A DNA stretch of 45,617 nt from Pseudomonas phage Fyn8. This document shows positions 20,374-24,249 of this stretch, in pieces. The stretch lies in the sequence record OP966821.1. One strand, 5' to 3'. A model generated the notes under the pieces. The model was not told the origin of the DNA. It ran no database searches and saw only the letters and a program-made list of their open reading frames with translations. A program made the translations under genes and the position numbers. Position 1 is the first letter of the stretch, and every line of letters starts with the position of its first letter.

Positions 20374-20588
20374 TATTTAGGCATGGGTTGGTCGCTGCAA
20401 CCTCTTCGTCCACGTCTGGAGCGCAGGCGGTCGTAGGGTGGCGGGCGGGAATCAAGGAGATATAAGAGATACGGTAGGTCTTGATATGATCGGCGGAAGT
20501 GGCCTCTATCCAGTCGCTAATTAACTTCATGATTGTCTTTGCATGAATAGCAGGTCACATTCCGGCGATCCAATATTAGGCGTTTGGA

Positions 20589-20684
20589 TCATATGTCTTG
20601 GTAATAAGTTGCAATAAGTACTAGCGCCATGAAGGCCGTAATTCCTACTGCCTTTATAATCATGATTGAAAATTTTAAATGCAT
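20589..20684 (-). CDS. 31-aa hydrophobic peptide, candidate Iap-like inhibitor of the host O-antigen alpha-polymerase
   Basis: Not in the ORF track (under 60 aa). Minus strand reads GGGAGGatagctATG (perfect SD), giving MHLKFSIMIIKAVGITAFMALVLIATYYQDI then TGA; a single TM helix; located in the AT-rich island with oac and wzy. Confidence 0.4.
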   Translation of the reverse strand: MHLKFSIMIIKAVGITAFMALVLIATYYQDI

Positions 20685-20866
20685 AGCTATCCTCCCTATA
20701 TTTACTTATAAATATCTTGCATTTTGGTGCGTAATTTGCTAGGCGTACGCCTCGATAGCCGAGACGATCCCTTTGGACATGGCGCGCTCACTCATCGTAG
20801 CACGGTGGGTTTTTTAGCGTAACCAGACGGCGTATACTCGACGGCATTTTTCTCCATGGGGATCAA

Positions 20867-22930
20867 ATGGGAATGAATGTCAACTCTGGCATACGGATAT
20901 CGTCTGGATACAAGCCTTTCATTGATGGGCTTAGGGCGTTGTCAATTTTGGCTGTAGTGCTATACCACGCGGGAGTACCGATGGTATATGGAGGATTTGT
21001 CGGAGTTGATATATTTTTTGTTATATCTGGATTCTTGATAGTTACACATATAGTTTCATCGATTCAGGATGATCGATTCTCATTCGGAGAATTCTGGGCG
21101 CGAAGGGCTTTGAGGATTTTGCCTCCCTACCTACTTGTTCTTTTTGTTTGCTCTGCGATTGCGCCATTTATACTTGTGCTCCCCAGGGAGATCAATGAGT
21201 TTGGCGATCAAGTAATTTACTCCGCATTGATGCTCGTTAACCATTATTTCCTAGGTCAGCAAGGTTACTTTGATGGGCTGTCAGAAACAAAGCCACTGCT
21301 TCATCTGTGGTCTCTTTCAGTTGAGGAACAGTTTTATATAGTTGCTCCTGTAGTTATCTTTTTATTATATGTATCAACCTCAGGATTGGGCAAAAGAAAG
21401 GCGTCGGTCATTTCGCTCTTTACTGTCTCATGTGTTTTTGCTGTTTCTCTTTATGGTTGTATAGCGCTTAGTGGTGATGGTGCTGGTAAAAACTATTCCT
21501 TCTTTTTGATGCCGCTTAGAGCTTGGGAGTTCATTGCTGGAGGCGCTATAGCATTTGCTGTGCCATTTGCCCAGCGTCTAGGTAGGCTGGCGTTGGAAAT
21601 TATTTCAATTGCTGGCGCTGTTATGCTGTTTTATGCGATCTTTGTCTTCAATGGCAAAAGTCCTTATCCTGCTGGAAAAGCTGTAGTGCCAGTTATTGGT
21701 GCTGCTCTTATAATTCTATGCGGAGTTTCCAATCACAAAATTTTAGTCTCAAGAATTCTGTCGTTTAGAGTTTTTGTTATGATTGGTCTTGTTTCTTATG
21801 CCTGGTATCTTTGGCACTGGCCTTTGCTGACTTTTGGAAGGATATATAGCTTTGGGCATAAAAGCATAGCTCTAGATTTGTCGATGGTTGCGATTGCATT
21901 TGTTCTTGCGTGCATTACATACGTTTATGTTGATAAGAAGGTTTTGAATTGGAGAAAGTCGCTTAAGCACGGAGCTAGCTGGAAGCATTCAGCTTATGCT
22001 GTAGCTTTTTGTATTCCGGCGCTATTGTCGGGAGTGTATATTTCTAAATATATGTCGGTATCGGTTGGTAATGGGTTTACAGAGGCGCAGATTCCAAGGC
22101 CTCCATCAAGTGCTGGGAATTGTAACCTTCATTTGGCAGAAAGCCCATCAAAGTGCTTGTCGATAGCTAGCGGAAAAGAGATCGGTCTTTTAGTTGGTGA
22201 CTCGCACGCAGATGCCGCATATCGTGGAATAGCACGTCATGCGTCCTCGTCCAATTCAGTCATTGCAACATTAAGTTCCGGCGGGTGTGCTGCAATTTTC
22301 AATGTTCACATAAATAACCCAGACGTTGCTATGCGTGAGCGATGCGAAAATGGTCGTAAAAATGCCATAAGAATGCTGAAGGATATTAATCCAAAATATG
22401 CTGTGCTGTTTTCAAGTTGGTCAATTTATAGTGGCAGAGGGTATTACTCGCTCGGTGGTGTAGGTCCTCAAACGCCTTTGTCTGATGTGAAGAGAGGTTT
22501 TGTTTCCAAGGTTGGAGAAACGATAGATTTCCTTAAAAGTACAGGGGTTGAAAGGGTTTTAATAATCGGGCCTGTTCCTATCTTCAAGACCTCTGCCCCT
22601 AACTGCGTGATACGTTCTCTTCACTATAGAATTAGCCCTGACAAAAACTGCTCGGTTTCACGTGATGAGGTTGAGAAATCGAGAAAAGATGTTGTCTTGT
22701 GGTTGAAAGAAGCGGCAGATGATAGGTCTGGCGTGAAATTTATAGACCCTATAAATGCTTTTTGTGATGAATCAAAATGTAGAAGCTATGGTGATGAAGG
22801 TGTTCTTTATACAGACACTAATCACATCAGTGATGCAGGCCTTGAGAGGGTTTACAAAAACAGTAAACATGCCTTTGACTGGCTGATGAATAGCGATGCG
22901 CGCTCAGTTGGTGTAAGCGGTTCGCTCTGA
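20867..22930 (+). CDS. oac: O-antigen O-acetyltransferase (acyltransferase-3 / OafA family with a C-terminal SGNH domain)
   Basis: 687 aa; N-terminal 10-TM AT3 domain (FIDGLRALSILAVVLYH...) and a C-terminal SGNH-like hydrolase region; low-GC codon usage. Confidence 0.85.
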   Translation: MGMNVNSGIRISSGYKPFIDGLRALSILAVVLYHAGVPMVYGGFVGVDIFFVISGFLIVTHIVSSIQDDRFSFGEFWARRALRILPPYLLVLFVCSAIAPFILVLPREINEFGDQVIYSALMLVNHYFLGQQGYFDGLSETKPLLHLWSLSVEEQFYIVAPVVIFLLYVSTSGLGKRKASVISLFTVSCVFAVSLYGCIALSGDGAGKNYSFFLMPLRAWEFIAGGAIAFAVPFAQRLGRLALEIISIAGAVMLFYAIFVFNGKSPYPAGKAVVPVIGAALIILCGVSNHKILVSRILSFRVFVMIGLVSYAWYLWHWPLLTFGRIYSFGHKSIALDLSMVAIAFVLACITYVYVDKKVLNWRKSLKHGASWKHSAYAVAFCIPALLSGVYISKYMSVSVGNGFTEAQIPRPPSSAGNCNLHLAESPSKCLSIASGKEIGLLVGDSHADAAYRGIARHASSSNSVIATLSSGGCAAIFNVHINNPDVAMRERCENGRKNAIRMLKDINPKYAVLFSSWSIYSGRGYYSLGGVGPQTPLSDVKRGFVSKVGETIDFLKSTGVERVLIIGPVPIFKTSAPNCVIRSLHYRISPDKNCSVSRDEVEKSRKDVVLWLKEAADDRSGVKFIDPINAFCDESKCRSYGDEGVLYTDTNHISDAGLERVYKNSKHAFDWLMNSDARSVGVSGSL

Positions 22931-22951
22931 TTTTTTGACTGATTCCTGATT

Positions 22952-22976
22952 AAAAGCCCGCCTAAGGGTGGGCTTT
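22952..22976. terminator. Bidirectional terminator between the convergent oac and wzy-like genes
   Basis: AAAAGCCCGCC-taa-GGGTGGGCTTT hairpin flanked by an A-run and a T-run. Confidence 0.55.
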
Positions 22977-23025
22977 ATTTCATGAATTGTGAGTAGTTGT
23001 ATTCTATTTGTCAGGCAGAACGGTT

Positions 23026-24165
23026 TTAAGATTTTCGTGACGAATAAAAACCCAGCGCCGCAGGAAGTAACAGGTATGTGAAGTATTTTCCAACAAGGAG
23101 AAGCACTATTGTCACTGCCAGAATTGAGAATGCGGATATTTCTCTATTCGTCTGCGCTCTGCCAAGAGCTATATTTATTCCTAGCTCTACCGCGGGGGCT
23201 ATTGAAATAATCAGTATAAACAAGAATCCGAACAACCCCAGGTCATACCATGCTGAGAGAATATTGTGTATGTACTCGCCTTTTTCATATTTTCCGTAGC
23301 TTCCTAATATTGGGCTTTCCATTATCTTGTTTAGGCCTTCAGAAGCTATCCGGCTCCGTTCATTGCTCGATCTGTCATGCTGAAGATCAAGCAGATTCGC
23401 TACTCTGCTATCTGGAATCTCCACTAAGCCCGAGCTAATGGTCGCTACTGATCCTACTGCAATTATTATAAGGGCAAGTATAGGAAGCCCCTTGTTTCTT
23501 GATGACATAAACTCGTAGATTGCTGCAAAGAGAGCGTATGCTACGAATTCACTTCTCGCACCATTTATGTAAAGACAAGCTATCGCTACAACATGCGCAA
23601 GGCATCTGGTTGGCAGTGATCTTAATCCTGTAATAAGAACAACCGAAAGAAGTAAATAGCAGAGGGCGAATGTCTGGTATCCAGGAATCTTGTCTACTTC
23701 GCTTGGTAGCTCCCTCAGGGAAAACCTGCCGTCTACAGTAAATATAAGAATGCATGCGGATGAAGCAATCCACATGGTCTTAAGAGCTATGCCAGGCAAT
23801 CGCTCTTTTCTGAAAGTGCCTTTGCATATAAGAAAAACTGCTGCGCATTGTGCGATTGAAACCATGTGCCATGTAAAGATATAGCTTTCTTCTTCTCTGT
23901 TGAAAATCACGACGCAGAGGAAGAATAGAAGGAATCCAAAATACGTCAGATCAATTACAGCTATTCGACCTGTTCTGAGCGTTGTCCACAGATATAGCGG
24001 AGCAAGTATGGCGAGCGCGGCTGCGGATGTTTTCCCAAAGTACCCAGTAATAAGCGCCGGGATTAGGCCATTTGTCGTCGCTACGTAATAAAGAATCGTT
24101 CCTGGGAATAGAAGAAGGAAAAGGATGTACGGGACGGTTGAAAACGGAAGCTTGGTCCTATTCAT
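23026..24165 (-). CDS. O-antigen polymerase (Wzy)-like polytopic membrane protein
   Basis: 379 aa with about 10 predicted TM helices and a Wzy / O-antigen-ligase-like loop region; low GC; adjacent to oac. Confidence 0.55.
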   Translation of the reverse strand: MNRTKLPFSTVPYILFLLLFPGTILYYVATTNGLIPALITGYFGKTSAAALAILAPLYLWTTLRTGRIAVIDLTYFGFLLFFLCVVIFNREEESYIFTWHMVSIAQCAAVFLICKGTFRKERLPGIALKTMWIASSACILIFTVDGRFSLRELPSEVDKIPGYQTFALCYLLLSVVLITGLRSLPTRCLAHVVAIACLYINGARSEFVAYALFAAIYEFMSSRNKGLPILALIIIAVGSVATISSGLVEIPDSRVANLLDLQHDRSSNERSRIASEGLNKIMESPILGSYGKYEKGEYIHNILSAWYDLGLFGFLFILIISIAPAVELGINIALGRAQTNREISAFSILAVTIVLLLVGKYFTYLLLPAALGFYSSRKS

Positions 24166-24249
24166 GCGTATTGCCTTTCTCCATTCCTAAAAACGTGGCG
24201 CGTCATGGTACGCGCTTCAATCATGCTAGTCATTGGATAGTGAATCGCC

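Follow-up and report, generated by a model that had tools for sequence, protein, structure and literature searches.

Pseudomonas phage Fyn8 (OP966821.1) carries an AT-rich island near positions 20374 to 24249 of its genome, and sequence comparison identifies this island, almost certainly, as a copy of the serotype-converting unit of phage D3, held as a lysogenic-conversion moron by a mosaic temperate phage of Pseudomonas aeruginosa. We refer to the whole stretch of DNA analyzed, 45,617 nucleotides (nt) in length, as the window, and coordinates are those of the window unless another record is named. A megablast search of the island against phage records returned D3 and PMG1, with 94.6 to 94.7% nt identity across the entire query. 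The features under this match are annotated as iap (inhibitor of alpha-polymerase), the O-antigen acetylase, and the O-antigen beta polymerase. In the annotation of D3 and PMG1, iap (96 nt) lies on the minus strand and is separated by a 182-nt spacer from oac (2,064 nt) on the plus strand, which is followed by wzyβ on the minus strand. The window has this order, orientation, and spacing, and the lengths of iap and oac are equal in all three phages. A preliminary description of the island, made from the sequence alone, had likened it to the D3 system of a small inhibitor peptide, a beta-polymerase, and an O-acetylase, with the same composition here; the DNA identity and the annotation of D3 and PMG1 both bear this out. 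The comparison with D3 that it proposed for the peptide and the Wzy-like protein gives 29 of 31 residues shared for Iap and 95% amino acid (aa) identity for Wzyβ. The features of the island are as follows.

20380 to 24325, no strand: block homologous to D3 and PMG1, 94.6 to 94.7% nt identity over 3,950 aligned positions
20589 to 20684, minus strand: iap, encoding the 31-aa Iap; 29 of 31 residues as in D3 Iap; phrog_34981
20685 to 20866, no strand: divergent iap/oac intergenic region, 92% identical to D3 and the presumed promoter region of both genes
20867 to 22930, plus strand: oac, AT3-SGNH O-antigen O-acetyltransferase, 96.5% aa identity to D3 Orf28
22953 to 22981, no strand: hairpin flanked by T-runs, in the convergent oac/wzyβ intergenic region; likely a bidirectional terminator
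23026 to 24165, minus strand: wzyβ, O-antigen beta-polymerase, 95% aa identity to D3 Wzyβ
24166 to 24249, no strand: spacer with the 5' regions of wzyβ and the endolysin gene, 98.75% identical to D3

The base composition of the island sets it apart from its surroundings. Measured in 300-nt segments, GC content is 0.39 to 0.47 at approximately 20450 to 24200 and 0.56 to 0.74 in both flanks. By feature, it is 0.33 in iap, 0.48 in the iap-oac spacer, 0.43 in oac, 0.39 in the oac-wzyβ spacer, and 0.44 in wzyβ, compared to 0.71 in the adjoining endolysin gene and 0.61 in the window minus the island. The abrupt fall in GC content described earlier is real, but it runs from approximately 0.61 to approximately 0.43 (rather than 40%). 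Likewise, an AT-rich island exists within the limits first given, 20374 to 24249, but its AT-rich core spans approximately 20531 to 24165, and positions 20374 to 20530 still have a GC content of 0.53. The coordinates and strands first given for the three open reading frames (ORFs) are exact: 20589 to 20684 (minus, 31 codons, with the peptide sequence as given), 20867 to 22930 (plus, 687 aa), and 23026 to 24165 (minus, 379 aa). The matches of the flanking genes also agree with the placement of the island between the tailspike gene on the left and the lysis genes on the right. The D3 unit has been termed a moron (PMC3594210). In the window, we see the deviant composition and the insertion between conserved phage modules, a terminator-like hairpin is present, and promoter matches are at chance level. 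We rejected as a gene a 74-aa ORF at 20306 to 20530 (minus strand): it matches no family, and compared to D3, PMG1, and the IMG/VR locus L011, a 1-nt indel disrupts its frame.

The product of oac is 96.5% identical to Orf28 of D3 and PMG1 and has the same length of 687 aa. It consists of an AT3 domain (PF01757, residues 18 to 352, 2e-30) and an SGNH domain (PF19040, residues 429 to 662, 3e-37), and it matches phrog_6705, "O-antigen acetylase," at 2e-219. The AT3/SGNH motifs defined in OafA, and their essentiality there, are taken from PMC7448272; all are present in Oac, as R23-X10-H34, GGFVGVD42, FFVISG50, R80xxR83 (RALR), GDS444, and DTNH650. The protein at 20867 to 22930 is therefore the OafA-type AT3+SGNH O-acetylase that the preliminary description had proposed. 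Among the public copies L019 to L030, the length of Oac is given as 649, 685, or 687 aa depending on the gene caller. In L025 and L028 at least, the "truncated" 649-aa form is encoded by DNA identical to the window; therefore, it reflects a different choice of start codon, and we discarded it as a variant.

The fold at 22953 to 22981 contains a 10-bp GC-rich stem (AAAGCCCGCC/GGTGGGCTTT) with T-runs on both strands, a terminator-like match lies at 22960 to 22973, and the corresponding site of PMG1 carries annotated terminators on both strands. An Rfam match to Trp_leader on this hairpin, found when 20000 to 24600 was scanned, is weak and below threshold, and we took it as chance. The 77 nt 5' of oac (20790 to 20866) are almost invariant in four D3-type copies, which differ by approximately 5% elsewhere, and a hairpin with a U-run lies at 20790 to 20816 inside this conserved stretch. 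The fold of the oac leader (20700 to 20870) scored z = -1.0 relative to shuffled sequences, which leaves a structured regulatory RNA unsupported. On the minus strand, a hairpin and T-run (24215 to 24198) stand just upstream of the wzyβ ribosome-binding site; the native wzyβ promoter has been placed only within 500 bp upstream of the gene (PMC4815439).

The island recurs, in part without a single change, in public assemblies. In a public assembly collection, 68 indexed blocks contain the exact Wzyβ allele. Positions 20380 to 24325 are 100% identical (3,946 of 3,946 nt) in L022 (GCA_047816385.1), L025, L026 (GCA_038405315.1), and L028, while L028 and L031 are identical to the window across 9.7 to 12 kb. 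These copies share the context of the window (tailspike, iap, oac, wzyβ, GH19 endolysin, spanins, and an SOS-response-associated peptidase, SRAP), and ordinary chromosomal genes lie beyond it; therefore, these copies are prophages. The exact cassette in its context is common among sequenced strains, and this wide occurrence argues for a maintained, functional unit. With 94.6 to 100% identity to characterized or public copies, the island is not a product of chance. Four copies (L027, L029, L030, and L032) hold a cassette 98.7 to 100% identical to that of the window in which wzyβ is followed by genes with Bro-N and HIRAN domains and by a Phage_lysozyme-type endolysin instead of GH19.

Several points weigh against the identification of the island as a working D3-type unit. 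Iap differs at two residues from the tested D3 peptide, Wzyβ has a C-terminal tail unlike that of D3 (379 versus 386 aa), and the convergent oac/wzyβ junction, the most diverged portion of the island, is 67 to 81% identical to D3. The sole Pfam match of Wzyβ, to PF04932 (Wzy_C) at residues 191 to 313, scores 27.9 bits (E = 2.3e-6), just below the cut-off of 31.7. A scan of the island for sigma-70-like promoters gave 7 matches compared to 7.5 expected from shuffled sequence and is uninformative; given these chance-level matches and the z score of the oac leader, we claim no specific promoter or leader element. The action of Iap has been interpreted as mimicry of a transmembrane segment of Wzz, and reviews disagree on whether the first or the second segment is mimicked (PMC12004945, PMC3854497). 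Comparison of an Iap profile with the PDB returned chance matches only and no Wzz. Finally, the expression and phenotype of the Fyn8 copy are predictions from the D3 genes.

Some of these points can be read as signs that the cassette, although intact in structure, has decayed in function or is silent, for example because its promoters have weakened or because its Iap variant no longer inhibits Wzyα. A promoter signal that does not rise above chance, the two Iap substitutions and altered Wzyβ tail relative to the tested D3 proteins, and the diverged oac/wzyβ junction are all compatible with decay. Against it, the three ORFs are full length and keep all known essential residues, and the Iap changes are conservative (I to M and V to I). 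In addition, the regions upstream of oac and wzyβ are 98 to 100% conserved with D3, and the island persists unchanged in many independent assemblies. We consider decay improbable and retain the interpretation of the island as an intact D3-type unit.

The smallest gene of the unit is the one most easily doubted. A chance ORF in AT-rich spacer DNA could be very short, lack a Pfam match, and be passed over by most gene callers, and all three hold for the 31-codon ORF at 20589 to 20684; our Pfam search returned no match for the 31-aa Iap. Yet 29 of its 31 residues are those of the experimentally characterized D3 Iap (ADE05840.1), with I8M and V9I as the differences, and the nt changes relative to D3 iap are three synonymous and two conservative ones plus the start codon. 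The Shine-Dalgarno sequence attributed to the ORF is present and strong, with GGAGG 6 nt 5' of the ATG, and the peptide matches a dedicated PHROG of 31 positions (phrog_34981) at 1.6e-23. Hydropathy analysis of Iap shows one hydrophobic span (best 19-residue window 2.49, from residue 7). The ORF is also conserved in type among related phages, where a 31-codon ORF of the Iap type accompanies wzyβ at all 19 genuine IMG/VR loci and in phage FBPa19, and three divergent types beside wzyβ each have 31 codons and the C terminus ATYYQDI. Given this, we attach hardly any probability to a chance ORF and treat iap as a gene. It had been described as previously untracked, which is correct only in that it was missing from the ORF list of the preliminary description; it is annotated as iap in D3 and PMG1 and has its own PHROG, and there are 21 public contigs with a gene call for the exact peptide. 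A scan of a genome collection with the Iap C-terminus pattern gave 0 matches.

For wzyβ, the alternative is that its product is an O-antigen ligase (WaaL-type) or another glycosyltransferase instead of a polymerase. This would fit the name of its only Pfam family, "O-antigen ligase," although the match is below threshold, and the annotation of homologues as "O-antigen ligase family protein" in one phage record and "phosphatidate cytidylyltransferase" in two. The Wzy_C motif, however, is common to ligases and inverting polymerases and has been placed at residues 189 to 320 of Wzyβ (PMC4815439), and the protein of the window is 95% identical to D3 Wzyβ. Mutagenesis identified R147, R151, R182, R254, R270, R272, and H300 as essential Wzyβ residues (PMC4815439), and all seven are present in the window. 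The O16 Wzyβ, which is reported to belong to the same D3-derived converting unit and whose topology has been mapped, was shown to make beta-linked O-specific antigen (OSA) (PMC4815439). In addition, the window protein matches phrog_19842 at 3e-252. A ligase is therefore a negligible prospect, and the Wzy-like polymerase that had been proposed at 23026 to 24165, opposite in orientation to oac, stands. Annotations of wzyβ homologues drift in other respects: phrog_19842 is labeled "polymerase" under "DNA, RNA and nucleotide metabolism," RefSeq D3 has plain "polymerase," and the records with "phosphatidate cytidylyltransferase" are those of FBPa19 and FBPa42. A scan of the genome collection for Wzyβ relatives gave 27 pattern matches, of which 0 were confirmed, and nothing on a non-phage donor of the AT-rich DNA.

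The last alternative is that the position of oac between the peptide gene and wzyβ in opposite orientation marks a variant of the D3 system that is rearranged or has some other new architecture. We found nothing in its favor, and it is refuted: the GenBank annotation of D3 and PMG1 shows the layout of the window, and so does a passage of PMC9658991 citing Newton 2001, which gives iap (minus), oac (plus), wzyβ (minus) downstream of the tailspike gene. There is no rearrangement.

The tailspike gene directly to the left of the island bears on what the unit would do for Fyn8. Its product matches phi297 gp61 (PDB 4RU5, E = 0) and LKA1 gp49 (4RU4, 1.5e-75), and LKA1 gp49 is an O5-specific OSA lyase (PMC5701251). 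Given a tailspike of this type, the receptor of Fyn8 is very probably the O5-type O-antigen, which would be removed from its own lysogens. The steps of this conversion were established by experiments on the D3 genes, which are approximately 95% identical, and are inferred for the Fyn8 copy. In a lysogen of an O5-type host, the 31-aa Iap would insert in the inner membrane by a single transmembrane segment and inhibit the host Wzyα. Iap is known to abolish alpha-linked O-antigen synthesis by Wzyα in a Wzz-dependent manner, and overexpression of Wzz reverses the effect (PMC3854497; PMC12004945). Wzyβ would be insensitive to Iap and would polymerize the same O-units with a beta linkage, changing O5 to O16. 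Expressed alone from its native promoter, Wzyβ gave mixed alpha- and beta-linked chains (PMC4815439); therefore, Iap is needed for a complete switch. Oac would O-acetylate the fucosamine residue, as D3 Oac does (PMC11436027; PMC3594210).

The altered O-antigen would then escape binding and cleavage by the phage's own O5-specific tailspike lyase, and the lysogen would resist superinfection by Fyn8 and other O-antigen-dependent phages. By analogy, lysogeny by Fyn8 would convert O5 to O16 with O-acetylation and block adsorption, an outcome known for D3 only. The cassette adjacent to the tailspike gene would in this way encode the means to remove the tailspike's own receptor from lysogens. For annotation, we suggest that Fyn8 be labeled serotype converting (O5-type to O16-type, plus acetylation) and that the 31-codon iap be called. 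The identification has consequences for in silico serotyping of P. aeruginosa, for host-range prediction in phage therapy, and for superinfection exclusion. The cassette in this arrangement is already known, and because experiments on the near-identical D3 genes have already worked out its mechanism, the window opens no new question about it.

A mildly new result lies outside the window, in the Iap-like ORFs of phages with a two-gene unit, which are unannotated in phi297 and FBPa19. We scanned IMG/VR with degenerate patterns of the Iap C terminus and obtained 21 matches, 19 of which are genuine loci; the matches in L005 and L012 are chance and correspond to no ORF. All 19 loci adjoin a gp49-type tailspike gene, and also wzyβ wherever the fetched stretch extends far enough. 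The D3 layout with oac is present in three (D3, PMG1, and L011) and a phi297-type two-gene layout in 10, with a peptide of the form MLRTI(F/A)(D/G)Q..ISIAAFILVLFIATYYQDI, while six loci, and phage FBPa19 in addition, encode the FBPa19-type peptide. The ORFs in the two named phages are as follows.

L003 (phi297, HQ711984), 5766 to 5858, minus strand: Iap-like ORF MLRTIFDQITKVISIAAFILVLFIATYYQDI, 31 codons, unannotated
L033 (FBPa19, ON857931), 3187 to 3282, minus strand: Iap-like ORF MYRKILAQFMQVMYATAFMLVFILATYYQDI, 31 codons, unannotated; likewise in L034 to L039

The phi297-type ORF also occurs in L004, L006, L007, L009, L010, L013, L014, L016, L017, and L018. All three Iap types have exactly 31 residues, with A17, F18, and a C-terminal ATYYQDI in common. 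Where the layout has two genes, the ATG of the small ORF abuts the TAA stop of wzyβ on the same strand, and GAGGA lies in the last wzyβ codons. Given this abutment, wzyβ and the small ORF appear to be translationally coupled. A review describes phi297 as carrying the beta-polymerase only (PMC3564109). We lean toward regarding Iap as a small family that comprises three or more sequence types (D3 MHLKFSI..., phi297 MLRTI..., and FBPa19 MYRKILA...), one of which accompanies wzyβ in every locus examined. If the variants are functional alpha-polymerase inhibitors, then a coupled operon of wzyβ and iap would be the minimal module for conversion, and the layout of D3 and the window would differ from it by 20388 to 23020 (iap and oac) in place of the coupled iap', with the change possible in either direction. 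The conserved C-terminal half of Iap would then be the part that targets the Wzy/Wzz machinery. Iap-like ORFs behind wzyβ would also explain the converting activity of the two-gene phages, and they offer natural variants for mapping Iap residues.

The window as a whole is apparently a complete temperate phage genome, opening with the small and large terminase genes. Its structural half is phi297-like (94% identity, 79% coverage), whereas the early half is pieced together from PA8, F116, and other phages; among the records of the phage collection, none covers most of the window. The features outside the island are as follows.

18133 to 20373, plus strand: tailspike gene, phi297 gp61/LKA1 gp49 type; PF22442, 5e-138; PF20745, 1e-38
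24250 to 24879, plus strand: GH19 endolysin gene; PF00182; phrog_181 "endolysin," 2e-90; first 76 nt within the D3-homologous block
24876 to 25244 and 25241 to 25501, plus strand: two spanin-like lysis genes, 83% nt identity to D3 orf32-34; phrog_3774 and phrog_3580
25785 to 26624, minus strand: SRAP gene, between the lysis genes and the integrase gene; PF02586, 7e-49
27435 to 28502, minus strand: integrase gene
37118 to 37783, minus strand: CI-type repressor gene
44813 to 44967, plus strand: adjacent tRNA-Asn(GTT) and tRNA-Thr(TGT) genes, near the end of the window

From the tailspike gene as far as position 20387, nt identity to phi297 is 88.8%, and homology to D3 (approximately 95%) opens at 20380, 7 nt past the tailspike stop, closes at 24325, and resumes at 24854. 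Positions 24326 to 24853 are the body of GH19 in the window, whereas D3, PMG1, and phi297 have orf30.5 and a lambda-type lysozyme there. Codons 1 to 25 of GH19 are nevertheless kept in these three phages as a relic between wzyβ and orf30.5 (window 24250 to 24325; D3, L001 7873 to 7948; phi297, L003 7098 to 7173). Because D3 and phi297 hold only these first 25 codons, the simplest reading is that the wzyβ-GH19 junction of the window is the older arrangement and that the lysis region of D3, PMG1, and phi297 has been replaced. The GH19 relic in D3 is mildly new and goes beyond the cassette itself. A strong terminator-like hairpin (10 bp, 7 of them GC) followed by a T-run lies at 24288 to 24313 (plus strand), within the 5' part of the GH19 coding sequence, and is conserved in the relics of D3 and phi297. 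For the genes at 24876 to 25501, a spanin role is suggested by a weak match to the Rz-like spanin family phrog_456 (4.8e-4) and by MRMVLMLVVFALAGC, the lipobox-like opening of the second product. The SRAP gene is also found at the prophage end in several public copies.

Compared to known systems, the island is closest to the unit of D3 and PMG1, which likewise lies directly downstream of the tailspike gene, has low GC content, and consists of the same three genes. It differs in its backbone, since the tailspike and structural genes of the window are phi297-like (the tailspike is 81% identical in aa sequence to D3 Orf27), in the iap start codon (GTG in D3 and ATG in the window), and in the Wzyβ tail, which is 7 residues shorter in the window. 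The two-gene units (phi297, Marin, PP9W, FBPa19/FBPa42, and 16 IMG/VR contigs) also stand between a gp49-type tailspike gene and lysis genes. Unlike the window, they lack oac, and the N-terminal half of their small ORF is unrelated to D3 Iap (45% identity overall); positions 20388 to 23020 of the window (spacer, iap, oac, and terminator) replace their iap' segment of approximately 130 nt. Their Wzyβ proteins are 92% (phi297 type) and 95.5 to 99.5% (FBPa19 type) identical to that of the window. Because the window wzyβ is closer to the FBPa19 type (98 to 99.5% aa identity) than to D3 (95%) and the oac/wzyβ junction is diverged, modules inside the cassette evidently recombine as well.

Among O-acetyltransferases, OafA and OafB of Salmonella are built like Oac, with a membrane AT3 domain (R/K-X10-H, RXXR, FFxISG) fused to a periplasmic SGNH domain with a Ser-Asp-His triad. 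The acceptor sugar differs and, in the D3 literature, is N-acetylfucosamine (FucNAc) in the O5-type unit (PMC11436027). Oac of Shigella phage Sf6 has AT3 only, without SGNH, and its reported identity to D3 Oac is only 22% (PMC3594210). OafA/OafB, Sf6 Oac, and the Oac of the window are all phage- or island-borne modifiers of the O-antigen. Salmonella phage epsilon15, like D3 and the window, pairs an inhibitor of the host alpha-polymerase with a phage beta-polymerase and so alters the receptor (PMC4815439). Its host and O-antigen are different, and the likeness is one of logic. In addition, epsilon15 shuts off O-acetylation by the host instead of supplying an acetyl group.

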